Below, piece by piece: positions 1,159-47,153 of a stretch of 64,000 nt of DNA. The notes beneath the pieces are model-generated. The model saw only the letters and a list, made by a program, of their open reading frames with translations. It ran no database searches and had not been told where the DNA came from. The translations under genes and the position numbers were made by a program. Origin of the DNA: Girardia tigrina (taxonomy: Eukaryota); contig MQRK01217150.1 in assembly GCA_001938485.1 (NCBI GenBank), forward strand, positions 1-64,000. The letters run 5' to 3'. The first letter of the stretch is position 1; each line of letters begins with the position of its first letter.

Positions 1159-3873
1159 TCGACCATTGAAGGAAATAGCAGTACTCTGGTTGATTCACAG
1201 CATACACTGCATCCATCAAACACAAATACTAAAAGCATTTTTGCTGAAGTGATCAAGTTGTTGCATACAAAAAAGACACAGTTCAATCAACAACAATTGC
1301 AAGCAAGACAACAAAAATTACAAGCAAAACAATCACAAGCACTACATAAACAACATGCATAACACACACAACATGAGCAACACATAACAAACACGCAAAA
1401 ACATCAACAACAAACCACAAACGACCAACAACATCAGGCAAACATACATGACAATTCGAACCCAAATCAGTATACAATGACTTAATTTGTCAAGAAAAGT
1501 CATCCAAATTATCAAAAATATGTTGAGGAAAAAGAAAATAGTGATGGGAAACATGAAGAGATTATCACTTCAGATCACTTTGAGGCCTTTTTCAATGCTA
1601 ACTTGAATGCAAACAACTAGCATTGGAAATGACAGATATATTCAGGGAAAAGTTTATCAGTATGAAAGGAGATAACAAAGATGTAATCAGAATAATCGAG
1701 ACGACGAAAAGCAGATTATCCACTCTTCTCAACAAGGTATCCTTTATCATCGCCAAGGAGCAATCCAATGGAAAATCTATGGCAACTTCCAGAACGAAGA
1801 GAGCTGAAAGATGAAGAGATAGAGAAAGAAATGAAGAGGAAAGTATTGGATAATGGGAGCGTGTTTATGTCAAGGGTTTTTAAACAATTCCGGGTGAGTG
1901 GAATGGAGAACTCAGCGGAATCGATAACTACCGTGGCATTTGAAGAACTGTGTCACCAGCTGAGGTGGTCAATGGAAGCACTTGTGAGCAATGAGTATGA
2001 TCGCAAGTGCATTCAAGAGTTCGCCAATGAAGTGAGAACAGAATTCTTCAAGAAGAAAAGAAAATTGATTGGGAAGAACAATGAGAAAAGAGAAGCCAAA
2101 AGAGATGTGTGCCAAGCTTTTGGAGAACTGACTGAGAAATGTAAGACATTGAAATATCGATCCAACTTGATTGACACAGTCGTGGATCCAGCTGCAGCCC
2201 GACATCTCCTACCAATGGATATACGAAATGTGCTTGTTGAAGAATTAAAAAAAAGATGGAAAGGAGGAGTGTTTGGGGGGGGGTATTACCACCCCAAATG
2301 GAGGTCACTATAACGCAACTAGTGAAAGATGCTGAAAGTGAATTTGGAAAAAAATTCCTCCATAAGCAAGGAGAGAATACAGATGAGAGGGAAGTAAAAG
2401 ATCTCGAAGGAATGAGAATCGATGATACCGAAATAACAACCCCTGTAAATACACCAATTTTGAAAGAACGGTTGTTGCAATCAGAGAAGAAAATTCATAT
2501 CTCCCGTTCGGTAGATGCAATCAGAAAACGCAACACTATTACAGGGGAAGTGGAAAAGAAGAGAACAGTTGAAATTGTAACCACGGATGAATCCACTTCA
2601 GCCGTGGAACAATACAACAAGGAAACGAAAAATAGAAATGGAGAAGAGGATGACAAAATTGAGACGGAGCAACTATCGTATGAAAGCACATTAGATGCTG
2701 ATGTTAATTCGAACAATGCAGAAACAATTATGGAAACTGATGATTCCATAATTGTAGCTGTTGAACAGAATGAGAATGAAGGTGGTGTAGTGAGAGAGAA
2801 AAGTATAGAAGGATTGGCAGAACCGAGAATACGAGAAGAATCACCAATGTGATGTCCAACTCCATTGAGAAGAAGTAAGAAATTGGAGTCACCTCCCCCC
2901 CCACAACCGGATATATCGTGCAACCAGGATAATATGTACAACATTCACATTGCAATTATGTAGAAATTGGAGGATGAGAGTGTTTATATGAACCTGGTCG
3001 AGTTGCTGACAGATCGTGTATTCTGCAGGGGCGGCAACCGCGCTCAATTTTGAAAGGCGATAATGGATGAACTAGCGGGAAGATAGGGTGCTTCGATGTG
3101 GGCTGAAGGGATCCCAGATGTCCTATGATATGGAGATCAAATATTACCAACTTGCATCGGAGGAAAGAAGACAAAGAGTTTCAGAAGTGATTAACTCTAC
3201 TCAGAGGTCATCACAAATGGAACCGTTGTTTGGAACAATTGAGGTGAGTGATGAATCAGATTCAGGTGAAGAAAAATCTGGAGATGATTCATTTAGAAAT
3301 GCAGAAATAGAAGAATGCACAATTCCGGTTTCATTCGGTCGGAGAATACCACGACCCGTTCTCGATTGTATGAAGTCTCCAGTTGTGACTCCAGTCACAA
3401 CTGAAGAAAGCCCGGAGGAGCAGAAGAAAGTTTATATACCGAAAGCACTGACAAGGGTTGTGGATGAGACAGTACCAGATACTGTTTCACCAAGGTTGGT
3501 GATATTGATAAACAGCATACTACGACCAACACCACCACCAATCAGTGCACCGAGAAGAGTCACAACGGCAGTGACAACCAAAACCGATGCTACTCCGGTA
3601 GCACCGGCAATGGTTTTAAAGAAGAAATGGGGACCGGCCTGCAAAACAATTCACAAGCCCGTGGTTGAGAAAAAGGCGGCTCCAGTGAAGAAAGTTGAGA
3701 TGGTAGACGAAGTTGATGAGTAGGGGTTTGTGCTTGTAGCCAAAGCTGGCAAGAAGGCTAAAGCTCCTTCTCCGGAAGAAAAGAAATGCACCAAATGACG
3801 GGATGGGCCCATCCCATCAACAGAAACAGGGATGGAATGCCAACCCTCACTTGTGGATGAATAAATCGAAATA

Positions 3874-4370
3874 TTGAAGGTGCAGGTTCCTGACAAAACA
3901 GCACCAGTAAACTCAATGTGGTTCACTAGTGAGCACATTGACTTTTACTTCAGGAACCATGCGGGATTGACAAGCGAAGGATATGTGAGCCCAGTGGACT
4001 GTAACGCAATGTTGAACAGCAGAACACGAGTGAAACGATTCATAGGTTTTGAGAAAGAGGATGTGAATGAGTGTAACTTTTTGTTCTGTCCGTTTAACGT
4101 TCGGAACGCTCATTGGGTTCTGTATGGAGTTCTAGTCGAAAAAGGAGTTGCCTTTCTCTTTGATCCGCTGAAGGAAAGTGGATTGAAGAGGGAGTCGGTG
4201 GCGATGGGAATGACACTTCATAGGATCGTCAACAAACATCCTGTTCGATGGTCTCTTGGAGTTTGACAGTGAGTGTGTTCCAGATTTTTATCAAACGAAT
4301 GACCACGATTGTGGTCCTTTTGTCTGTATATATGCTGCCGGGTTGGTGGAGGACAGTTTGGATGAGACTC
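3874..4370 (+). pseudogene. Ulp1/C48-family cysteine protease domain 1 (catalytic residues present)
   Basis: WFTSEHIDFYF ... FCPFNVRNAHWVL ... FLFDPL ... QTNDHDCGPFVC gives the H, D, Q and C of the Ulp1 fold. One frameshift near 4256. Confidence 0.85.
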
Positions 4371-4479
4371 CAGCCGTTGCAGTCGAACAGATTAGGGAAT
4401 TTGTAGAACTGATGCCGGGAAATGAGAGTGCTCCAAAGCTAATTGGAGGGGGTCCAACACCCCTGGACAATTCATTGCA

Positions 4480-4920
4480 GGAGTATCTCTCATTTACGGA
4501 AGATCACTTCTCGGTATTTATCAGTTCTTACACAGTAAGTCACTGACATCTGACGGTGAAGCCGATTGTAGCAACGTCAATCAGCAAAGGCAATGCTTCT
4601 TTCCTTAGAAAACAGGTTACCATGGACATTTTTGATGGAAAGGAGTGTATTTATCTGCCTGTGCTGATTGATAGTAGGTGATGGGTTTTGTTTATGGCAG
4701 ACTTGAAACACTATGATTTCTCAGTGTTAGATCCCACTGCAGATATTATTGATAAAAGTCTGTTGCAAAGAATGAGAGTGACTGCTCGATACATCGAACA
4801 CTTGTGTCTCACAAAAAGAGAAATGAGAATAAATGTATTTGTGCAGCCACATCAGCTGGTGCAGAATGGAGGACAGACGGGGCTGATGGTGTGTGGATAC
4901 ATTCGAGCTCTGATAGAAGA
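4480..4920 (+). pseudogene. Second Ulp1-like domain, catalytically degenerate
   Basis: IYLPVLIDSR*WVLFMADL...SVLDPT...QLVQNGGQTGLMVCGYI parallels domain 1, but the His position is a stop and the DCG motif reads QTG. Confidence 0.65.
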
Positions 4921-5399
4921 GCGGCCGCTTTTTGATATCAATATTGAGAAACTTAAGAAGCGGATCGCGAAACAACTCATCAAAGCAAAGAAGAAGGGTC
5001 CCACATCAACAGTGAAGCAGAGGAAGAACCACACCACTCTCAATGCAACTCATGCAGCGAGAGTGGAAAATTCATTGACCTTTGCTGAGGTCCGATCATC
5101 AACAGTGGACCCCGATATACTTGAGAGAGATATAACTAATTATATCTACTCTCACAGGCCCATTAAACGGAGAAATATGTATATGGGCAGCAAAGTTGTC
5201 GAGTCCACTAACCAGGATCCCAGATTAAGAAAATTGTATCGGGTTCAACCAAAGAAAGCAGTTTAAATAATACTAAACAACACAGTTGCTGACACTACTC
5301 CATCGACAGAAGCAATCATAGAGCACTTTAGCGTAAAATCTGTTGCCCCCCCTATTAGTGATTTGGGGGATTTTCTCTTAGTTAAGAGAGGTGATTTAT

Positions 5400-6620
5400 T
5401 CGAACTCAGGGAGGTTCTCTCTGGTGAAGTGGTATAGGCGCTGAACAAGGCCAACAATTCATCCCCGGGTTACTCAAATATTACATATAAGGATATGTTA
5501 TATTGTGACTCGGTGGGTGCAATATATACAAAATTATATAATAGGATAATCAATAGCCGAGTGATCCCGGAAAGTTGGAAGGAATTCTTTACAACACTCC
5601 TTCCAAAACCGGGAAAGCAAGGCCAGTATGATCAAGTCTCATCAAGGAGACCGATAGCTCTCTTAGAGTGTGCCTATAAAATATTGGCAACACTTCTAAA
5701 ATATCAATTAAATAGGTGGGTAGTGGACAACAAACTCTTGCACCCATTGCAGAAAAGTCCTGGACCGCATGGTGGTTGTGCTGAACACAAGTTTCTCATT
5801 AGGGCGATCCTAGACAAGTACTATTCTCAGCTGGTGGAAGCTGAGTTCCACGTAACAATGCTGGACAATGCTGATGCATTTGACTCAGTGTCGGTGAAAA
5901 TCATCCTAAAGCTGCTGGGAAGAATGGGTGTAGGAGCCGACTGTGACGGGTCAGATCCCGATTTTAGTGGGGGTGCGACAGGGTTGTTCACTCTCAATGC
6001 TGTTATTTAATATCGCCATAAACCCGGTCTTGCTGGAGCTAGATCAACAATCTTATGGCGGTATGATAATAGCTAATCACCATGTGAGTTGTTTAGCTTC
6101 TGCTGATGACCTTGTGCTGCTGGCAGACAATCAGAGTCACATGCAGTTAATGATGGATAAAGCTGCAGAACTTACAAACATTATAGGGATAAAATTCAGA
6201 CCTTCCAAATGTGCACGGATAGCGATCTCACACAATCCAAATAATAGGATCCAGATATATGGTAGCGCTATCCCGGAAATCACCGAAGGTGAATTCGTTG
6301 TATATTTGGGAGTTCACTTTTCGGAGAACATAAGAATAGCACCAGTTGAGAAGCTTGCAGAAGTTACAAGAGAAACAGTAAAGATTACAGAATACGTGCT
6401 GTTTCTTTGTCAGAAACTGCAAGCCTACATGATTTACCTGCACTCCAAGCTCATATTTGCCTTCAGGATCTTCTATATTCTATATGGAACTATTGATGGC
6501 AAGAGCTTTAGTCCGGACAATGTAATCAGACTATTGCATAAGAAGGTGTTGGGACTGCAAAAGAATGCATCAAATGCGTATCTCTACACTCCAAGAGAAA
6601 ATGGGGGGTCGGTATCAAAT
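5400..6620 (+). pseudogene. Non-LTR reverse transcriptase domain
   Basis: Motifs PGYSNITY, WKEFFTTLLPK, RRPIALLECAYK, GGCAEH, LDNADAFDSV, GVRQGCSLSMLLFN, LASADDLVL, FRPSKC, YLGV, with frameshifts. Confidence 0.92.
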
Positions 6621-7246
6621 CGTTACTTGATGAGTACTTGATACAGTCGCTGGCCCACAGTTTCCAAATGATTGCGTGTAATGATATGACAACGATGGAT
6701 GCTGCAGTCTTCTCCCTTCAGCATGGAGCTACAGGTCCCAGAAAAACGCGTCTCTTGTCGATTGAGGCGGCAATACGCTGGCTGAACGCTGGGACACAAT
6801 CGGGGAAAATCAAAAATTGGTGGGCGAAAATCAAGTTCGCCATTCATAAGATTGTGAATCTGCACCAGATTTCAGTAAGTCTGGTGCAGAATAAACGGGG
6901 TATTTGTCTACATCTCCACCAGTCATTGGTGTGGGAGAGAAGACTGTCAAATGGCGAGACTGAGGTACTTAAGGACGAAACAAGCGAAAATATGTTTCTC
7001 ACCCCCCTCCTAAAGTCCAGTGTGTTCAAGACACTAAGAAGATTGGTGGAGAAATCTTGGACACACAAATGGAATATACAAAGCAGCTCTGGACGGATTG
7101 CAAGAAGCTTGCAATCCACAATCACCTTTCACTGCGCTGTTTATGGGGGGAAGTTGAATTATAGCGAGTGGTATTTTTACCACAAGGCAATGACCTACAC
7201 AGTGCCTATTAACTACCGACAGGGTATTACTAAGAACAAGGGACAC

Positions 7247-7780
7247 TGTCGTAGGTGCCCTCATAATAAAGAAACCTTGGCCCATGTACTTACAGGATGT
7301 ATGTACAGTGAAGGGTTCTGGAACTATAAACAAAACTCGGTCCTTTATTGTATAGGGGAGCAAATAACTGAATATTTAGACTGCAAAGTCGATATAAATG
7401 TTTAGCGTAGATATGCTCCATCTACACTCCGGGTTGATCTTCAGGTATTCGTCCCATGATCGCAGATCTTATACCTAATAGATGTCAAGTGTCGGTATGA
7501 CACGAAGAAGAACATGGAGAATAGAAACCAAATGATCCTCGATCATTACGAGATTCTTGTTGTTTTTTGCAGGGCAGCAATGCTAGAGACGATTGTGACA
7601 GTGCTCGCCCTTCAGGTAGGGTGCCTAGGGACGTGGTCGAAAAGGAGCATTGTCATACTGACAACTCTAAAGATCCCGCCAAAGGTGATAAGACAGATTG
7701 CAATTGGCTGCTCAGTATCGAATATGAAATACTCAGCAGCACAATGGTCTTATCACCGTTATGGCATAGTCCCAAGCGGG
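7247..7780 (+). pseudogene. CCHC zinc finger plus restriction-like endonuclease (RLE)
   Basis: CRRCPHNKETLAHVLTGC, then LRVDLQVF...LYLIDVKCRYD and VGCLGTW, typical of R2-group RLE domains. Confidence 0.85.
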
Positions 7781-8284
7781 ATCCAGAGAATAAATAAGAT
7801 TACTGTAGAAGAGATCCAAGAACCTGATGAAGGCATGTTAGCGATGGAAGAGATGAAATATGAACATGCTATTCCTGAGGGTGTATAAGAATTTGATCCA
7901 GCCGCCCTGGAAGCACTAGTACAATCTTATAGTTACAGAGTAGGAGTGCAACAGGGGGGAGTAGTATGTATTGAGGATCAAACAGATAATGATCCATCTG
8001 ACGATGAGCTAGTCTCCAATCTAGATAGGATGAGGATCGGAGATTCATCAGAGGATGAAGAAAACTCATCATCGGAGAAGACTTGACCTTCGATGATGAG
8101 TTATTAAGGATGCAGTGAGTGAATGTGTCGGGCTTGGCGGAAACGTTCACCCAAGTGATGGGTGCGGGGGTAGGCCGCTAATGAAAAAACCACTGTGGAA
8201 ACCAGGGCCGGTGTAAAGGACGCCTTCGGGACGATACATGCGGCAAATTTATTTATGTACCAACCGGGCACTTTTACTCAATGA

Positions 8285-8545
8285 CAAAAAAGAAGGCAGA
8301 AAAATAAAGATATTCAAAGATTATTTCTAGCAATTGAAGTTCCAGGAAAAGGCACAATTAATACTGCTAAAGTGTGAACAATTAAAGTAAAAACTTTAAG
8401 ACAAAAAGTCAAAGAAATGTTTAAAATTGAAGGAACAATACTCTTATTGCTTTTGGATTTAGAATTACAAGATAAAAATTACCTATATGGTTATGGATGT
8501 TATGAAAAAGAAATTAATAATATAACAGTTTATTATATTGAGGAA
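8285..8545 (+). pseudogene. Putative ubiquitin-like (beta-grasp) domain upstream of env
   Basis: Frame of ORF 8417 extended upstream through one TGA: RLFLAIEVPGKGTINTAKV*TIKVKTLRQKVKEMFKIEGTILLLLLDLELQDKNYLYGYGCYEKEINNITVY. By eye it aligns to ubiquitin (TIENVKAKIQDKEGI...LIFAGKQLEDGRTLSDYNI). Confidence 0.5.
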
Positions 8546-8778
8546 TTTTACGATATTAATGATTTTAACGAATTTACTGATGATTTACAAAAAGTTGAAA
8601 TAAAAAAGGAAGAAAATATGTTGCAGTATCAAAACATTCCCGATGTAGATATAAATGTTAATTTAATAAGTACAAGTATGTCAAAAGAAGCAAAATGTTT
8701 CGAAATAAAGTAATAAAAAATGAATCGTTGAAAGATAACAAATTTGATGAGGGTAAACAATCTAAATATAATTCGAGA

Positions 8779-11300
8779 ATGTTGTGGTTATCATTAATTA
8801 TGATTTTATTCTTATGTATATCTCCAACGATGTCTTTAGTAGCGTATGATTGTTCACAAACAGAAGTTGGAAAAATATATTCATGGATGTCGTAGAATGT
8901 ACTGAATTACAAATTAAAGAAGAGAAAAATGTTTTTTATCATTTATATCAAGAATCAGGATTTAGAAGAGCAAAATGGCGAGAGTGTATAGTCAAACGTG
9001 CAACTTATGTTTTTCATTGTGGAAAATCGAGTCACTCTTCTCTTATTAAAATAGATGTTATACCAAGACCAGTTAATATCTTACCAGAAAATTGTGAAGC
9101 AGCATTTCAAACGAAACAACTAAAAATTGATTCCACTTTAACTTTAACTGCCAAAGTTGGATATATTACGAGAGAATCTGTATTTGGAAAAGGAGTAATG
9201 TATCAGGATGGAGAATGTAAAAGAGAATCTGTAAAATTGGGGAATAAAATAGTAGATAAAATCATGGTATCAGAGGAATATCAAACAGAATTGGGAGAAT
9301 TTGATGGAATTTTTGATTATGTTACGGGGAAATTACAGTCCCATGCATTTTGTAATTATCGAACTACAAGCTGTCAAACAGGAGAATCTGTATTATTAGA
9401 CTCAGTTAATTATAAAGAATGTAATTTGGCATTTCTTAAATCAGCAGAATTTATTGAAGCTCAAGGCATTCAAATACAAAAAAGACCAGATATATTAAAA
9501 CCGAAGAAGCATCAAGCTCGAAAAGCAGTACCAGTTCAAAAAAAAGAATTTAGCAACAGTTTTAATGTCATCTCTTTCAGCAGATGGAATGAGATTTATA
9601 AGAAAAGAAAAAGAAAACCGTTGTGGAAAATCAATGTATTCAACAAATTACAAGGGTCTATATGTTTCTCAAGAAAGGATACCCGATGCTACAGTTGTAC
9701 ATAATGCTGATATAAAATTATCCCATTATTTGAGCAATAAAATAGATTTTGCATTTCATTTTCATCAATCAACAGTGGAAAATTTATATCGTGAGGTTAT
9801 ATTAAATGATTGTAATTTGAACCGAGAAATATTACAAAATCGAATCGCTTTAGTAGTAACAAATTCTAATCTAGTCGCTCCAATATTAGTCGCTGAAAAA
9901 GGTGTATTTGGACGAATTATGGGCGAAGTTATGAATGTAAAGAAATATCAGTTCAAATAATAAAACATAATGAAACAAATGAACTTCCAGTTAGTTATAA
10001 AGGTGAACTAAGATTTGTAGAACCTATAACACGAATTCTAGTGGAAAATGGAACAAGACCTAGAAAATTATGATGTAATGAGATAACAGCACCTTTATAT
10101 GATGTAAATTATATCGATTAACACAAGAAATCTGGATTTCGTTACCAAATAATAAAGAAGTTAAAGGCATCAAAAAATTGCATTTAACAAACTTAGAATA
10201 TTTAATAAATTTTACGTCTTTAGATCAAATGTCAACAATTTGTATTTATGTTGGGTTTTAAAAATCTTTAATTTTAAATATTTACTTTTTTAAACACAAA
10301 TCTTTATTCTTTAATAGTAAGTCTTTAATCTGTAAATCTGACTCAAATTAATCAGAAAGGACTTCCAACATAAATATATAGACAATGAACACAAATTCTT
10401 TTTTGAAACTTTAATTCAAATAACAAAAATTAACAAGTCAAAAATAATAATAATAATTCAATTCTTGATGACAGAACACAAACACAAAACAATATTTCGT
10501 ACGAGTTAACAGATTACAGTAAAAACTGTGAATCTCCAAAACGAACGAATGTTAAAATTTAAATTAAACCTTTTCCTCCCATACGCGATACTTATGGTTT
10601 AAAAGAAGAATATTTTAAAAAAGAATAATAAATAATAAAAATAATTCTATATAATGAGTTAAGTTGCTTCCTTTTGTTTTTGATGAGAGAATTTTTTGGG
10701 CAAACTAAACTAAATTTGCTGCTGTTTATATAGTAATTTTCATTAGCCTTGAAAATTGATAAAATAAAACAAAGACTAAAATATTTTTAATTTTAGATTC
10801 CAAATTTTGTTAAACTAAATATTATTTTGTTTGAAATTAGTAATTTTACCAAAAGAATTATTTAAAAAATTTTTCTACATAAAATTTTATCAAAAGTGTT
10901 CAAATGTATTTTTCGAAACCCTAACATTTATTCACCAGAAGAAATTGAAGATTCAAGACGAAATTTCTTATTTCCTTCTAAAAAAGAAAGAGTAATGAAT
11001 GAAATCATCAATACCGTTTTACCTTATGGAGTAGGAAAAGTAAACTTCGATATTTTTTTGAATATAGACCATTGCCAAAGAGCCACTATGAATGCGATGA
11101 AAAGAATATGGGGAAAATTTATATTTTTTGGTCAAGCTTGTGCTGGTTTAATTGGAGTTTATAGAATTTTTACGATATCCAAAGTTTTTATTTCTCAAAT
11201 TTTATCAACATACAGATTATATACAATTTTGGGATTTTCATGGAAATTAATAATTGGATGTATTCCTATGATAGCAAAATTTTTCAAAATTTCATCATAA
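8779..11300 (+). pseudogene. env: Envelope glycoprotein of chuvirus-like / class III (gB-like) type, frameshifted and split by a solo LTR
   Basis: Signal peptide MLWLSLIMILFLCISPTMS followed by LVAYDC; ECIVKRATYVFHCGKSSH; Cys-rich ectodomain; NKIDFAFH; IYSPEEI...FLFP is restored when the insert is removed; membrane region WGKFIFFGQACAGLIGV...LYTILGFSWKLIIG. Confidence 0.8.
10249..10926. mobile_element. Solo LTR inserted in env
   Basis: TGTTGGG...CCCTAACA termini with a 4-bp TSD TTTA (10245-10248 and 10927-10930). Removing it restores the frame MSTICIYSPEEIED. Confidence 0.85.
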
Positions 11301-35146: not shown

Positions 35147-36471
35147 TTATCTAATATGAAAGAATATATAAATAGATTATTAGAAAAAAGTGAATGTAAA
35201 CAGACAAATAGATAAGGATTTTTTACGTAATTGTAATTATATACCATTCATGAGAAATAAAACAAAATGATTTCTAGTGTACTGATTTATTATGAAACTT
35301 CAGATAAATATTAATTTAATACATAAAATAATAAAAAGAATTAATATTATTAAACTGCTCGTAGCATTTTTAACACATTTCAAAATGAAATATAAACAGG
35401 AATAATCAATTTACTAATCAAGCATTCGTATCAGGTTTCTGAAATAATAATTTATCAATTTATTATGTGATTAACCAGTTAAGTCTAAGAAAGAAAATCA
35501 TTTCCCGAACAAAAAATCAACGAGGTTGAACCAATGATGGAAATATTTATGAAAATTATTTCAATCTAATTGCTCGTAGAAGGTGTCGTATCTGGGAGAT
35601 TCTTGTTAGCTTTAATAGGCAATTGGATATCTAATTTGATTAGTTTTATCTCAATTACATTGAAATTAGATTTGCTATTAATCAACAATGGCGTTTTGGT
35701 TTCTTTTGCACCATCACACGTAATTGCATTACATTTAATTGTTTTCCTCTTATATTTTGATTTCTTTTTACGTTTGACGTATTTTAATTGAATATTCGTT
35801 CAATGAGAACATTTCTAATAAAAGAAAAAAACTTCTTTTAATAATATTTTATTTAATGATATTCGATCATTCTTTAAAACAAAAATAAACTAATTTTTTT
35901 ATAAATTATTATTCAACGTTCTGAAATACCGATATTCTTATTGATTTGGTTATTACATATTATTTTGTCAAATATTTATTTATCAACTTCACAACTTTAT
36001 TATAATTGAAGGTTAAATACAAAAGGAACATCAGTATAGTTAAAAATGCTGAAATAAAATTGAAAATTGAAAAACAAATGAAACATTATTAACAAATAAC
36101 TCTGAAAACCATATAAAATTATTTTTCTTATTAATTTTGGTGGATAACTCGCCATTATTAAACAAATTGTATCAATTTCGATCTTTGTTTACAATGTCAA
36201 AAGATCAAATTAAGCGGTGTAGAAGAAGTTGAATGTGAGGTTTTAATATTGATTTTCGAACTAATTGATATTACCAATAGGACCTGGCACACCCATAATA
36301 TCGCGATGCCCAAATGCGAGTTTTAATAGGTTTATTACTAAATGTATCGCTTATTTATAATGGTTTAGAAATAATTGTTAAGTTCATCATATTTGAAAAT
36401 ATTACAAGAAATACGACAATTTGAAATATAAACAATAAAAAATGATACTTATCAAATATTATTGAATAATA

Positions 36472-37755
36472 TTAGGTGTACAAGTATGAAATGCGGATTT
36501 CAGAAAACGGATTGTGCACAATGCAAAAAGTAGGTCAATAGTTACGCAATGATGTCATAATATTGAGTAATTATGTAGTGTCTCATACGTAACTCATAAA
36601 TTGATAAAGCGTTTTAATAATTGTTGTATTTCTGTGTTTAAGATGTCCAAATTTATACCAAGCAGGGAGCATTCGCGGACGGTACTAATTTTTTGTTACC
36701 ATCTAAAGAAAACTGCTGCTGAATCATACCGATTACTCCAAGAAGCTTATGGTGAATATGCCCCATCGCAAGATACATGTGAACGATGGTTTCGGCGCTT
36801 CCATGGTGGTGACTTTGATGTTGCAGATAAGGACTATTGGAAACCACGAAAAGGTTTCGAAGATGTGGAATTGCAAGCTTTGTTGGACGAAGATGTTTCG
36901 CAAACACAAAACCAACTGGCAGAGCAATTAAGTGTAACTCAACAAGCTGTTAGCAATCGCCTCAGGCAGATTGGAAAGATTCATAAGATCGGCCGATGGG
37001 TACCATATCAATTAAACGATAGGCAGATGGAGAGTCGCAAAACCACTTGTGAAATCTTGCTTGCACGATACAAAAAGAAGTCATTTTTCCATCGCATCGT
37101 TACTGGGGACGAAAAGTGAATTTATTTTGATAATCCTAAACGAAAAAGATCATGGGTAGCCCCGGGTACGCCATCCACATCGACAGCCAGACCAAATCGC
37201 TTTGGCAGAAAGACAATGCTCTGCGTTTGGTGGGACCAGAAGGATGTAATTTATTATGAACTATTAAAACCCGGTGAAACGGTGAATACTAAACGTTACA
37301 AACAACAGTCGGTCGATTTAAACCGTTCGCTGCTTCAAAAAAGACCTGAATACCTCAAAAGGCAACACAAGGTTATTCTTCTCCATGACAACGCTTCGTC
37401 ACATACATCAAAACCGGTTCGCGCCATGTCGGAGGAAATGAATTGGGAAGTTTTACCTCATGCGGCTTATTTACCAGACTTGGCTCCTTCAGATTACCAT
37501 TTGTTTGCACGATGGGTCACGCATTTGCTCAGCAGCGCTTTGATTCTTACGAAAATGTGCAAAAATGGGTCGATGAATGGTTCATGGAAAAAATGGAAGA
37601 CTTTTACTGGCGAGGTATCCACAATTTGAGATATAGATGGGACAAATGTATCATTAGTAATGGAGCATATTTTGAATAAAGCTTTTTTTATCGTTCTTTT
37701 GTTTTAACGTATTTCTTTTCAAAATTTAATCCGCATTTCATACTTGTACACCTAA
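36472..37755 (+). mobile_element. Full-length mariner, mauritiana (Mos1-like) subfamily, 1284 bp
   Basis: Perfect 28-bp TIRs TTAGGTGTACAAGTATGAAATGCGGATT with TA on both sides. Transposase MSKFIPSREHSRTVLIFCYHLKKTAAES, WVPYQL, TGDEK*, HDNA, YLPDLAPSDYHLF. One stop and one frameshift. Confidence 0.95.
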
Positions 37756-38264
37756 TATAATAGAATTATTATGAACACTAATTGGATTTTTAATAAATTT
37801 ATTTGTATCATAACTTGAATCGCTAGTAGGACAATTCTCCATAAAACTTTCATAGTTAGTCATCGTTCTTGATTGGTAATTTTAATTCTATTTCTAAACG
37901 TCTTATTATTTAAACAAATTTAAATTACAATTCGATTTCAAAATAATTTATAATATAAATTACAAAAGTAATTTTAATTATTTAAAAAAATATTTTACAT
38001 ATATTATTTATGATATATTAATTTAATTTTAAAGTATTTACAGTAATCGTAGAAATTGCAATTCTAAGAAAATACAAATTAATAAATGTGCGAGGCTCAA
38101 GTAAAAACTCACCATTTTCGTAAGTGGATTTTGAAATAATGACAAAATACCTTGATATCGCGATATCTGATAACATTTATTACATTTATTTTAATTGATG
38201 CAATAAAACAAAGAGACATATATAACAAGATTCATTAACACAATAATACAACTGGTATAAAAAA

Positions 38265-39068
38265 TTAAATACAACGAATTTCTGACAATTTCCATATTGA
38301 ATAATTTTCACCATTTCTTTCTTTTCTTCCTTGTATGCATATTTTGATAAATGCCATGGAATAATTAGACAAGTCCATTGCTGGTATTTCATGACCCATA
38401 AAATCTCTGAATTTTAATCCATCATCTAATCGAAAATATTTTTCTCGATGTTCACTCAGCTTCCCATCTGGTCTTGTTCCTACTTCTTGTATGGCTACAT
38501 TCAAAAGATCATAATTGCGATCACTAATATCCTTTACATGATAGCTAAATTTGCTCTTTCTAACATATAACAGATCTCTCAATTTAATTGATTTTGGATA
38601 TTTCAACAAGTTAATCTGATATCCTCTATATGTTGTTGATGTAGAAACTCATAGCGAGGAAGATTTTTGTGGAGCATCTCTTTGTTTTGGTTGAAAATAA
38701 CTAGCTTGGTTAGCCTGACTAACCAAAGCTTCAGCAATTGGTGCCTGGATATCCTTAGTTGTCTGAGTGCCTAGACTAGCCCGGCTTGCCTTGGCTACTA
38801 TTGGTCGTCCAACTAGCCTAGGCAGTCTGACTAGTCTAGGCCGCCCTACTGGTCTGACTGGTTCGACTAGATTAGGTTGATCAGCATTTATCTCTTCAGT
38901 TAATTGGTTAGGTCCATTAATTGTCCCATCATCAATCTTCTTTTCTTCAGTTACCTGGTTAAGTTCATTAAAGGTTTAAAACTTCCACTTCATTTTAGCA
39001 GGAGTAACTTGATTTGTCAAACGGATTTTGAAATAATAACAAAATGTCTGAATGTTGCGATATATCAT
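38265..39068 (-). pseudogene. Unknown 268-codon gene with two in-frame stops, AT-hook-like GRPR/GRP motifs and a globular beta-rich C-terminal domain
   Basis: One frame: MIYRNIQTFCYYFKIRL...*...PVGRPRLVRLPRLVGRP...*...LLKYPKSIKLRDLLYV...IWKLSEIRCI. Confidence 0.5.
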
Positions 39069-39216
39069 ATCATGTTAACATTTATTGTATTTATTTTATT
39101 TGATGCATTAAAAAAAACAAACTATTATAATAATATTACTTATTACTTTTAAAATAGCAAAACTAACACTTGTTATTAATTTGTTTTAATGAATCACTTT
39201 TAATAAATAGACACAA

Positions 39217-39230
39217 GGCGGGAATTTGAA
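39217..39230 (+). promoter_or_regulatory. E2F-like site abutting a CHR-like motif (GGCGGGAA-TTTGAA)
   Basis: The only GC-rich motif in the 195-bp AT-rich spacer between two divergent ORFs. Confidence 0.5.
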
Positions 39231-39263
39231 TTGAAATGAATACTGAGGTACATTTTTAACAAA

Positions 39264-39701
39264 ATGCTGCGTAATATCAAATACAAAGGATTTACTGAAG
39301 AATGCCTAAAAGACCTCCATTTTGGTACTAAACCGTGTCAATGTGTTTTACCCTTTCCGGAGTACACCATCATATTCTTCCGCAATGGAAAATGTCGAAT
39401 AATGGGATGTAAACAACGAATTGATCCATCCACTTTATCATTCAATATCACCAATGTCAGTATACAATCTATTACAGTGACGTGTGATTATGGTGAGCCT
39501 ATAAATAGCAATGCTTTGAAAAAGACTACTCCGAATCATTATGAACCTGAAATGTTTCCTTTTTTGAGATTTGCTTGTTTCAATCCAATATGTGTAAATG
39601 TTTTTGGTTCTGGGAAAATTTTAATCACCGGTTTGAGAGATTTAAACTATAATGATTTTGTTACACGTCTTTTTGACTATATTTTGTTTACAACTATGTA
39701 A
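39264..39701 (+). CDS. Minimal divergent TATA-binding-protein-like protein, 145 aa, intronless
   Basis: Repeat 1: NIKYKG...TIIFFRNGKCRIMG. Repeat 2: IQSITVTCD...YEPEMFPFLRF...VNVFGSGKILITG, compared with TBP IQNMVGSCD...YEPELFPGLIY...LIFVSGKVVLTG. Confidence 0.85.
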   Translation: MLRNIKYKGFTEECLKDLHFGTKPCQCVLPFPEYTIIFFRNGKCRIMGCKQRIDPSTLSFNITNVSIQSITVTCDYGEPINSNALKKTTPNHYEPEMFPFLRFACFNPICVNVFGSGKILITGLRDLNYNDFVTRLFDYILFTTM

Positions 39702-39749
39702 GTTATGTTTCAAATATATTGTTGTATCTTCATTCAAAATCTTGTGTAT

Positions 39750-40742
39750 ATTAAGCTTTAACTCATTAAGCTTTTGAAGAGTCACTTTTGAAATATGAGA
39801 TCTAGCGTTATGATGAAGAAGGATGGGACTTTTTCGATTGACCAAACCCGGAGAAAGGGTTTTCAATTTCTTATGCATTTCATCAATTTCATGACAGTAC
39901 CTCTCCGCTGTGATTGTCTCACCTGGATTCAAGAAACTATAGTGGATGATTCCAGCATCACACCACCAAACTGTCACCATAACCTTACGGGGTGTTAGAT
40001 TCGGTTTGGGGAAGTGCTTCGGTACTTCATCTTTGTTCAACCAATGTGCAGATCGATGTCGGTTATCATACAGGATCCATTTCTCATCACAGGTAACAAT
40101 ACGATCAAGAAATGGATCGTTTTTATTGCGAAGATGATTGACAGAACAAATTTATAGCGTCGGTTCTTTTGATTTTCATTCAAATCATGTGGAACCCATT
40201 TATCAAGTTTCTTGATTTTTCCAAGTTGTTTTAAATGATACAGGACTGTTGAATGACTAATGCCAAACCCATCTGCAAGTTCTCTGATTGTTGTACGGGG
40301 ATCTGTTTCCACCATTATCCTCAAATTGTCGTTGTTCACAACAACTGGACGACCACGACCTTCTTCATCTTCAAGGTTTTCATCTCCATCAAAAAATTTT
40401 CGGAACCATCGTTGCACTGTGCGCTCAGAAGCTGTTCCCTTGCCAAACGCTTTATTGATATTGCGAGCCGTTTTTGCTGCTTTACGACCCAGTTTAAATT
40501 GGTACAAGAAAATTGCTCGAATTTTCATTTTTTCCATTATTAATTTAGCACCGTAAACATTCTAAAATATAACAGCAATATGTTAATAATGGCTATAGGA
40601 ATATACAGCTATGCATAAGATTTCAAATAATATTTAACACTAATGCATTTAAACTTATATACATATCAAAGTAGATAAACAAAGTATAAAGCTCAAAANN
40701 NNNNNNNNNNNAAAAACCGCCATTATTTTTCGACCAACCTAA
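39750..40742 (-). mobile_element. Mariner, cecropia (Hsmar1-like) subfamily, 3' truncated
   Basis: IRAIFLYQFKLGRKAAKTARNIN, WVPHDL, TCDEKWILYDN, LLHHNARSH. Left TIR TA|TTAGGTTGGTCGAAAAA. Confidence 0.92.
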
Positions 40743-40816
40743 TATATCAACCTATTATATCAACCCATTATATCATAATATATCATTTTTGATCACTTTT
40801 TTGAGAATTTCCGACC

Positions 40817-40872
40817 GTTGCTAGGGTGATCGGAACCGTTGCTATGGTAACCGTAACCGTTGCTTTGGTAAC
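40817..40872. repeat. Three RFX X-box-like palindromes at a 21-bp period
   Basis: GTTGCTAGGGTGAT (40817), GTTGCTATGGTAAC (40838), GTTGCTTTGGTAAC (40859). Confidence 0.6.
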
Positions 40873-40980
40873 GGGTGATCCCCTTGGGGGGGGGTGTGGG
40901 TCAGAAAATACATTTTATCCATTCTTTAGTCGGCATTTTGTGAATGAGAAGGATGTCGACCTGTGAGCGAGAGAATCTAG

Positions 40981-44689: not shown

Positions 44690-46007
44690 TAAAAAATTAG
44701 AATTCGCTTTATTTATAAAATAATGTTAGCATCATTTAACAGTGCTGGTATAAATTTTCAAAATATTTTACCTCATTTGTTAGTTAGAAGATGAATTTGA
44801 TTAATTGATTAGTTAAGAAATTTGTTTTGATTTTCATATTCAGAATTTTTATTCTTAAAAATTCATTTCATATTCTTAAATATTCATTTGAACCAGTAAT
44901 TTTCCGCTTAATAAAATAAAAAATTCCAAGTTGAAATTCACATTTTTTGCGTTATTCCGCTTAAAAATTCCCCGCATCTGACACCCGAAAAATTCAATAT
45001 ATAACTAATCGCCATTGCCGGAAGACTGCATTAAATCCACTTATTTGAAATTCCAGTTGCATCGTCACTAATAAAAACTTCTTACTCTTTATTTTGTTCC
45101 TCTGTTGGGACGACAGTTTGGGCACTTCTTTTGTATCTTCTTCATTGCTGCTGTCTTCCAATGATGACGATTCTTCTTTAGTCACAGTTCCTTTACTTGC
45201 GACTGAATTAGTAGCTTGTTTCATTTTCTTGTCGTCTTCCTCGTCTGAACTTCTTCTGTTAATAGAATTTTTGGATTTGCCATACCCATAAAGTAGACAC
45301 TTAATTCGAATTATCTATCTGTCATTTCAAATGTACTATACCAACATGTCGCTTGATCAATAATTGTTTCTTTTCCCTCAGGTATTTTCCAAATTATATC
45401 TTTTTTTGGGAATTAGGAAAAATAGTTTTTTTTCTTATAGAAAGCATTGCAGGTCTTCTTATGTTCAATATAATCTTAGATTCAAATTTTATATTACATA
45501 GCTTTAGAGGAATAGTATTTTTGATTTCTCAATTATTTTAATTGTTATACAGATACTTTAAAATTTTTCATGGTTTAAATTAATTAATTTCTTCTTAATA
45601 ATATAAATTAAAAAAATTATTTAATTATTATTTGGATTACTTTTCATGTAACATATCTGTAAAACAGACAATAAATATTTTTCATAACCGTTTTTATTCG
45701 AATACTTTAAAAATTAAATATTATTTAATATGTATAATAATACTAAACCTATAAAATAAAACATGAAATTTAAATTTCTAGCCCTTCAAGAAAATATACA
45801 GAAAAATTTATTTCCTACGAAATACGCACCAATGGGGATAGTTTGCTTAATTACAGACGAGACCAATAGAAATGAATTAATCGGCTATTTTAACGGGGCG
45901 CAATATCTTGATTATTATTTCGTAACTGGAATCTTTAATTATAGTACGTTATCTTAATATGTTATTAAAAATTAATTCAACTTTTAATTTTAGAAATCTG
46001 TAGAAGA

Positions 46008-47153
46008 ATGGATAATAATAAACATGAAATGGATCCCATAAGTAAGCATTCGTCACAAAACTTTTCAAATACAATCAAGATGGTTTCATTATATGGGTCT
46101 TCTATTGTATCGCTGATAATAAATGGTCAAGAGAGACTTTGTCTTGCCCAAATTTCTAATACATTGCTCAGTAAATATAGTTATAATGAAATACACAACA
46201 GAAGAGTTGCATTGGGTATTACGTGCGTTCAATGTACTCCAGTTCAACTTGACCAACTCAGAAGGGCTGGAGCTATGCCAATATCATCAAGGCGATGTGG
46301 AATGATTACAAAGCGGGAAGCTGAAAGATTAGTGAAAAGTTTTCTTGATGAAATCAGTCCACCGAAATTGCCAGCAAATTTTGCGTTTAATGTGAAGCAT
46401 AGTTGTGGATGGGGTTGTCACGGTAGTTTTATTCCAACTCGTTATAATAGCTCTAGAGCAAAATGTATAAAATGTCATCAATGTCAGATTTTTTTTTCAC
46501 CAAATAAATTCATATTTCATTGCCATAAACCCGATAATGATGAAATTAAACGATCAAATTTAAATTACCACCATCCCGATGCAGCTAATTTTAATGCTTG
46601 GAGAAGACATTTAGTAATAAGTGACGAAAATCCATTAGAAAACATTTTACATGCATGGGAAGATGTCAAGGCAATGTTTAATGGAGGGAATAGAAAGCGA
46701 TTGCTTAATCAACAACAAATAGATGTTAATTCTTTAACGGAAGATTTAAATTCGACAGAAAGTGCTTTGAAACAGGATTTTAAATTGATCAATGATCTCC
46801 CGAAGTATGATATAAATTTCCAGTCAGTCGTAGCAAAAAAAAGTTATAAAGAAGACTTGAATAGCTATTTATCGACATCTTTAATAAATTATGAATATTT
46901 AAACAATGGAAAATTAAATACTGGTCTTCTTGATGGAAGTTTATTTAGAAGATCTATTAATCCATTTAATATTTCAATGCAAACAAGGGAACCAACCTAT
47001 TCATGGCTTTTTCCATCAATAATTCCAAATATATTAAATCATAATATGATTGCTCCTATTGATAACTTTGTGAAGCCTATTTCATCTACTGAGAAGGATT
47101 CAATATGTAAAACAACTTACGACATTGATTCGATAATAAACAACAGATTTTAA
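46008..47153 (+). CDS. SKOR: SKI family transcriptional corepressor (SKOR/Fussel/Corl), 381 aa
   Basis: Ski/Sno domain GQERLCLAQISNTLL..YSYNEIHNRRVALGITCVQCTPVQL..LRRAGAMPISSRRCGMITKREAERL. SAND-like domain HSCGWGCHGSFIPTRYNSSRAKCIKC..C..FFSPNKFIFH, FNAWRRHL, WEDVKAMFNGG. A possible splice acceptor TTTTAG at 45993 may mean an upstream exon exists. Confidence 0.96.
   Translation: MDNNKHEMDPISKHSSQNFSNTIKMVSLYGSSIVSLIINGQERLCLAQISNTLLSKYSYNEIHNRRVALGITCVQCTPVQLDQLRRAGAMPISSRRCGMITKREAERLVKSFLDEISPPKLPANFAFNVKHSCGWGCHGSFIPTRYNSSRAKCIKCHQCQIFFSPNKFIFHCHKPDNDEIKRSNLNYHHPDAANFNAWRRHLVISDENPLENILHAWEDVKAMFNGGNRKRLLNQQQIDVNSLTEDLNSTESALKQDFKLINDLPKYDINFQSVVAKKSYKEDLNSYLSTSLINYEYLNNGKLNTGLLDGSLFRRSINPFNISMQTREPTYSWLFPSIIPNILNHNMIAPIDNFVKPISSTEKDSICKTTYDIDSIINNRF

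Follow-up and report, generated by a model that had tools for sequence, protein, structure and literature searches.

The window considered here, a stretch of 64,000 nucleotides of the Girardia tigrina contig MQRK01217150.1, carries a TBP-like gene at 39264..39701 on the forward strand, an intronless open frame of 145 codons (Pfam TBP, E 3.6e-13), as the earlier note had described. A divergent gene, orfA, lies at 38265..39068 on the reverse strand, and the previously reported dimensions of this arrangement are exact, with a broken frame of 268 codons that is interrupted by stops at codons 31 and 140, and a spacer of 195 bp (39069-39263) between the two frames. The start of orfA is likelier to be the AAAATG at 38993. 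Further to the left, the 5' remnant of a protein-primed polymerase gene (pPolB) occupies 38010..38115 on the reverse strand, and is formed by an ATG at 38115-38113, a predicted GT..AG intron of 49 nt at 38112-38064, and the first codons of exon 2. Each of these three genes is preceded by the same 30-bp motif, a candidate early promoter, found 5' of the TBP gene at 39180..39209 (forward strand), of orfA at 39088..39117 (reverse), and of the polymerase gene at 38183..38212 (reverse); these are its only three occurrences in the window, a count that is descriptive, given that the profile was built from the same sites.

The element to which these genes belong extends from approximately 38010 to 40925, beyond the limits of 38265..39701 originally assigned to it. 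The stop codon of the TBP gene is followed by 52 further positions of the element (39702..39753, forward strand), and then by a transposon inserted in the element and foreign to it (39754..40744, reverse strand, including a short N gap), beyond which lies the right terminal inverted repeat (40745..40925), which is internally deleted and has a decayed terminus near 40925. A second foreign transposon is found on the forward strand at 36470..37757, approximately 250 bp to the left of the polymerase remnant. Both are presumably of the mariner type, a family name based on the motifs of their transposases, and the pair had been described as lying between two mariners; the flanking transposase frames are present, although the one on the right sits within the element, and any role of the mariners was discarded as incidental. 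The remainder of the pPolB gene and the left terminal repeat are absent from the window.

Other features of the window include a short sequence 5' of the TBP gene (39217-39230, GGCGGGAATTTGAA), found as an exact 15-mer in 15 of 54 copies, most of which retain the TTTGAA part. We take this to resemble an E2F site followed by a CHR-like element, which might tie early expression to cycling cells. Elsewhere, the window holds a host gene of the Ski/Sno family (45969-47153, Pfam) and a decayed non-LTR retrotransposon (1696-7888), the frames of which are presumably protease-like, reverse-transcriptase, and endonuclease-like. The fragments downstream of this retroelement, at 8378-11300, presumably resemble a viral fusion glycoprotein.

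The AlphaFold2 model of the TBP-like protein, built with 80 homologues, reached a pLDDT of 95.6, and was adopted in place of folding from the single sequence, which was dropped at a pLDDT of 34. The best structural matches of this model are TBPs (Foldseek E 4e-9; Z 14.2, with an rmsd of 2.5 Å over 145 residues), so that the protein shares the two-repeat saddle fold of the cellular TBP/TRF (PF00352) and the TBP-like proteins of the NCLDVs. The first repeat is nevertheless shortened, as claimed at the outset, given that the model has no helix of four or more residues within positions 1-75, and both of the helices of this repeat are missing. In comparison with the cellular TBP/TRF, the protein is approximately 30 residues shorter and has altered saddle residues, and its identity to solved TBPs is only 19-26%, versus 41-50% to Polinton-type proteins. 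The phenylalanines F39, F98, and F114, which presumably intercalate into the DNA and kink it, are kept in 79-80 of the 80 homologues, while the first of the four positions is variable, with the register judged by eye in repeat 1. The residues E94 and E96, which we assume to be the acidic stirrup residues with a role in the contact with TFIIB, are kept in 75 and 78 of the 80 homologues, respectively. The usual saddle residues are replaced by N6, R45, M47, S69, and N112, and the polar positions specific to the family are nearly invariant.

The protein belongs to a family of short TBPs found in Polinton-like viruses. When 1.84 billion representatives were searched, 73 matches were recovered at E<=1e-10, mostly of 140-200 aa and aligned over the whole of the query, and a scan of viral contigs found no relative. 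In a tree of 87 columns, from which P0071 was dropped, in which the row P0139 was badly cut, and which held no named animal TBP, TRF2, or TRF3, 20 of the 21 two-repeat TBPs form a single clade (100/99), with the window protein outside it. In the genome of the species itself (1.43 Gb), at least 152 protein matches with 69-90% identity were obtained from the 150 scored of the 1,680 candidates, and the best DNA matches span the entire TBP-orfA gene pair. Other genomic copies are linked both to orfA and to pPolB, within a Polinton-type element. The suggestion that the locus represents part of an endogenous DNA virus, or of a large transposon, that has a TBP-like factor of its own has held.

The suggestion that the frame stayed open through selection or recent insertion has not survived, given that 27 of the 52 near-full TBP copies have no stop or frameshift, and that a frame at a divergence of 4-7% would, by calculation, remain open with a probability of 0.38-0.58. 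The ratio of nonsynonymous to synonymous change (dN/dS) is 0.65 in the TBP gene and 0.79 in orfA for the rare variants, versus 0.09 and 0.18, respectively, for the variants common to at least six copies. Selection therefore acted during the replication of the element, not on the copy in the window. The contigs from four runs, whose status as RNA is a guess, cover the genes and the spacer alike, with many variants, and are uninformative on transcription.

In related viruses, a conserved version of the C-terminal 120-aa domain of orfA is encoded next to the TBP gene, and homologues are found on 22 of the 80 metagenomic TBP-bearing loci, with a pairwise E of 6e-7 to the contig L108. The core of an AT-hook is RGRP, and the AT-hook-like motifs previously seen in this gene do not stand up to comparison, given that the core occurs in none of the 51 matches to the stretch, and the tripeptide GRP in 28 of them. 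Profile and sequence searches for a known fold or an OB-fold returned no match, and a weak atlas lead (0.80) is to a cluster with 23% Phi29 SSB; a role in single-strand binding would be a guess.

The longer copies of the element, here termed segment P, read from one terminal repeat through pPolB, orfA, and the TBP gene to the other, and the complete copies, of approximately 8-9 kb, carry these three genes only. Three copies were followed from repeat to repeat (7,870, 8,317, and 8,858 bp), with 6-bp target duplications. The ends read AGTAGGGG, with AGTAG termini and inverted repeats of the AG..CT or AGT..ACT type, and the target duplications match at six of six positions in L040/L053, L063/L064, L041, L045, and L186/L187, and at five of six in L039/L051. 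Exact matches to a 21-nt terminal pattern number 4,267 in the genome, against none for its control. The catalytic motifs of pPolB are seen in the P copies, and an ATG followed by a GT..AG intron of approximately 49 nt is found in 10 of 18 pattern matches (four of the 18 being chance), which points to a predicted intron directly after the start codon. No ATPase, capsid, protease, or exonuclease-like gene of the second segment described below was found in the 59 stretches of P, and the three integrase matches in them belong to a resident Polinton (two) and a Gypsy insert (one). The best reading of the window locus is one decayed copy of segment P of a high-copy element of the Polinton/adintovirus type.

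The polymerase lies behind orfA at 15 of 48 orfA ends, and is inverted toward it at 17 of the 48, counts from which duplicates were not removed. The two orientations of the polymerase block are thus similarly frequent (L039, L040, and L049 versus L032, L059, L189, and others), and may be subfamilies or isomers. The loci L045, L234, L244, and L268 hold short derivatives, in which intact repeats, flanked by target duplications, enclose a single gene or a few genes.

A second element of approximately 8-9 kb, segment V, carries the ATPase, integrase, minor capsid, major capsid, and protease genes, together with an exonuclease-like gene, labelled EXO in this analysis. It was reached through probes from the metagenomic contigs L108 and L113, with which 107 matches to the capsid gene and 151 to the ATPase were recovered from the genome, at identities of up to 77%. 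The V genes were assigned by homology to the metagenomic genes, with Pfam support for the ATPase, integrase, and protease probes, while the capsid labels are based on size, position, and one weak Capsid_N match in a relative. The ATPase regions lie inside terminal repeats of the P type in 10 of 10 cases in one set and 16 of 20 in another, and V copies with their own target duplications were found in L234, L244, L268, and L259/L260. Within the repeats, pPolB, orfA, and TBP were found in none of the 30 ATPase-centred regions and none of the nine capsid-centred regions; the polymerase found next to L256 is external to the repeat, and its DNA matches neither the P probes nor those of the resident Polintons.

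At 12 of the 13 distinct loci with enough sequence past EXO (besides the contig L323, discussed below), a version of the P-type motif follows, with no polymerase. This motif is partly deleted in L214, and the old V copies run from it into the repeat. Past EXO, the motif in L263, L257, and L214 is followed by AAAATG and several codons, and then by GTAAGT, which resembles a splice donor and leads into the terminal repeat, in the manner of a vestigial first exon.

The two segments carry complementary gene sets on elements with indistinguishable ends. The identity of the terminal repeats is 85.9% between P copies, 85.9% between P and V, and 86.0% between V copies (19 P and 18 V ends), and the P and V labels are unclustered on the tree of the repeats, with 13 changes against a shuffled mean of 12.7. 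An integrase and a pPolB were never found on a single element of the old family in the sample, and are supplied only by the two segments jointly, in a sample that is small in relation to the approximately 1,680 TBP and 780 ATPase candidates and is weighted to the best-scoring copies of a fragmented assembly, so that a rare unsplit parent of the old family could be missed. The copies of P and V available to read are all integrated and decayed. The P polymerase does not group with that of its closest metagenomic relatives, L108 and L113, in a small tree with no named members, and the DNA identity to the sister family described below is 70-78% in the old P genes and 86% in the ATPases, which suggests that P may be older than V, or partly foreign to it.

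The heptamer TATAAAC is found 63 times in the sense orientation and never in the antisense in 47 kb of V, and once in 43 kb of P. Six V starts are preceded by it, mostly at 30-46 nt, as are three others at a similar spacing, and it is present before these nine starts in 29/32, 26/32, 28/35, 25/28, 9/11, 8/10, 13/15, 12/13, and 21/21 copies, that is, in 80-100% of the copies in each case. Before a tenth V gene, it was found in none of 12 copies. In the metagenomic relatives, in which the gene starts were picked automatically, the box precedes 17 of 25 ATPases, seven of 13 EXO genes, and six of seven genes that follow the ATPase, and none of the 66 TBP or 15 orfA starts. The strict form is rarer before the integrase (0/14), minor capsid (0/10), protease (1/7), major capsid (1/5), and polymerase (1/3) of these relatives, with a looser box being found more often before the first four. 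None of the 42 ORF starts in the resident Polintons, which have no TBP, is preceded by the box, which thus marks the genes of the virion module in the TBP-bearing elements, and not in the TBP-less ones. Judged from its position, TATAAAC is a candidate target of the TBP-like protein, and is also near enough to a normal TATA box that it could be read by the host TBP. A TAAGA-type box was rejected in V, where it is unenriched (TATAAGA being found seven times in the sense and nine in the antisense orientation), and the 30-bp motif is a less likely target, given that it precedes the genes of P and, in V, is found once, at the end of the segment.

A younger sister family with the same repeats inhabits the same genome, with TBP copies that are 96% alike, versus 92% in the old family. 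Its TBP2 has 69% amino-acid identity to the window protein, and TBP2 and orfA2 lie directly before the ATPase, at the position where V carries a gene termed v2. The sister polymerase, pPolB2, has 70% DNA identity to that of P, and the end of the gene adjoins the repeat; in the contig L323, EXO, the P-type motif, and the start of a polymerase with the same intron follow one another on one strand. The sister family looks unsplit, given that its TBP lies beside the ATPase, and EXO, the last gene of the virion module, beside pPolB2, a link seen at a single junction on one internally deleted contig of a family whose contigs are short. This arrangement, together with the motif past EXO in V, would fit an unsplit ancestor whose early genes left for P. 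In four sister loci (L320, L325, L282, and L283), the acidic gene v1 is present, together with its box, at each end, which gives the impression that the terminal repeats have captured it. The ORFs beside a sister cassette at L277:1935-4189 are presumably Rep-like and helicase-like, and are accompanied by a presumably PLA2-like fragment.

In the metagenomes, 113 TBP relatives were found and 80 kept, and Polinton core genes are present on 27 of the 34 loci of at least 3 kb. In complete relatives, both of the gene sets sit on a single molecule, and the TBP, ATPase, integrase, and capsid-type genes and pPolB occur together on single contigs (L108, L113, L151, and L160); a search of the G. tigrina genome for a polymerase close to that of L113 returned a best identity of 41%. 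One of these viruses carries a ubiquitin-conjugating E2 gene (L108:225-722), and a second TBP-bearing clade (L151, L156, L160, and L164) has a PLA2 gene, with the box before the virion-module genes taking the variant form CATAAAC. Canonical Polintons of 16 kb are also abundant in the planarian genome (127 capsid matches; L080-L082 and similar loci), and were rejected as the partner of P, given that they have other termini and repeats, and no TBP match in 10 regions and 10 short loci. The contigs that contain both P and a resident Polinton are nested insertions, in which P inserts into the Polinton (L183).

Given the gene sets, the common repeats, the target duplications, the fold of the protein, and the distribution of the box, it is probable that the window holds a decayed segment P of a two-element Polinton, in which P and V complement one another in trans, with the TBP-like protein as a late-gene switch that acts through TATAAAC. 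The common terminal ends would serve as cis signals, from which the P polymerase would copy both segments, the V integrase would insert both, and the V capsid would package both, so that P would supply replication and the transcription switch, and V, integration and particles. The altered saddle of the TBP-like protein would bind TATAAAC, and the protein would recruit the host TFIIB, through the kept acidic stirrup, and RNA polymerase II. Host regulators bind the face of TBP that carries the helices of repeat 1, and the loss of these helices would free the viral protein from the regulators of that face. The split is likely to have arisen from an unsplit ancestor similar to the younger sister family, along the boundary between early and late genes. 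In its boldest form, this reading would make the element a double-stranded DNA virus of animals, of Polinton lineage, that is genuinely bipartite and divided exactly between early and late genes. The polymerase, orfA, and a minimal TBP would lie on one segment, and all of the particle and integration genes on the other, behind the TATAAAC that this TBP reads, so that each segment would hold a switch required by the other, and the unsplit sister would retain the ancestral state. This form is put forward tentatively, and falls somewhat short of an even chance.

It is rather unlikely that P and V are not partners, and are instead deletion derivatives, both non-autonomous, that an unsplit helper mobilizes, the helper being either an unseen parent in the old family or the sister itself. 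A sister that shares the repeats and looks unsplit does exist, many further deleted forms are found, down to a TBP gene flanked by repeats and gene-less elements, and the exact terminal matches far exceed the gene-bearing candidates. A helper would not, however, account readily for the fixed and complementary gene sets of P and V, with no intermediates in the sample, for the purifying selection on the common variants of the P genes, or for v2 in the place of the TBP cassette, and the sister copies are younger than those of the old family.

It is also unlikely that the split is real and the TBP-like protein is a decoy that titrates the host TFIIB, or a DNA-binding factor of the replication origin or of packaging. 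The loss of both helices of repeat 1, the association of the TBP gene with the replication genes, and a box that could suit the host TBP would all agree with such roles, but three of the four DNA-kinking phenylalanine positions and the polar residues of the saddle are nearly invariant, and the box precedes the virion-module genes in the elements that bear a TBP and is absent from those that do not. A retrocopy of the host TBP, or a domesticated gene held open by selection at the window locus, would explain an intronless open frame, but is scarcely credible for a protein with so many genomic matches within a mobile element, closer to Polinton-type proteins than to solved TBPs and outside the cellular clade, given that about half of the copies are open anyway.

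The nearest known systems are the Polintons/Mavericks (adintoviruses), which, in the accessible parts of the published accounts, share the inverted repeats that start with AGT, the 6-bp target duplications, and the genes for pPolB, the rve integrase, the packaging ATPase, the adenain-type protease, and the capsid (PMC8097293, PMC8502044, PMC6431247). As described there, these are single elements of 15-25 kb, whereas here the genes are found on two elements of 8-9 kb. The available text on intact vertebrate Mavericks reports no introns (PMC8097293), unlike the polymerase gene here, with its predicted intron after the ATG. A gene labelled TBP is present on the MELD viruses, which have an adintovirus-like PolB (PMC8502044, legend of Figure 5; bioRxiv 697771). 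This likewise places a TBP-like gene on a Polinton-type genome, as a figure label, with no family, structure, promoter, or function given in the accessible text, and the gene may be a member of the short family; in the literature searched, that label is the only prior record of a TBP on such genomes.

A functional parallel is provided by KSHV ORF24, the viral TBP of the beta- and gammaherpesviruses, which the accessible text describes as a mimic whose phenylalanines are conserved, and which binds DNA through a polar face and brings the host polymerase II to late promoters (PMC12529657). By analogy, the planarian protein may work like ORF24, and is not a member of that system: ORF24 is large, belongs to a multi-protein complex, and is predicted to be incompatible with TFIIB (PMC12529657), in contrast with the bare saddle of 145 aa that keeps E94 and E96. 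Segmented genomes with a Polinton-derived pPolB are reported, in the parts available, for the bidnaviruses and the segmented bidna-class viruses (PMC8502044; bioRxiv 2024.03.25.586562), which are parvovirus-like, with single jelly-roll capsids, unlike the present elements, with their integrase, Polinton capsid genes, and integration with 6-bp duplications. Neither a bipartite Polinton nor a study of the TBP of a Polinton was found in the literature search, and either could be present in Repbase, subscription papers, figures, or supplements. What is new here is that a TBP and its candidate box lie on different elements, with a sister that seems to be unsplit in the same genome.

Segmentation of the genome is uncommon in the double-stranded DNA viruses. 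The reason why viruses split their genomes is an open question, and the presence of split and apparently unsplit relatives in one genome, in hundreds to thousands of datable copies, makes the ratios of the segments, their ages, and the selection on them directly measurable. The TBP of 145 aa and its candidate 7-bp box offer a one-protein model of viral late transcription, and the pair of segments may also identify what moves the many elements of this genome that have such ends and carry no genes.
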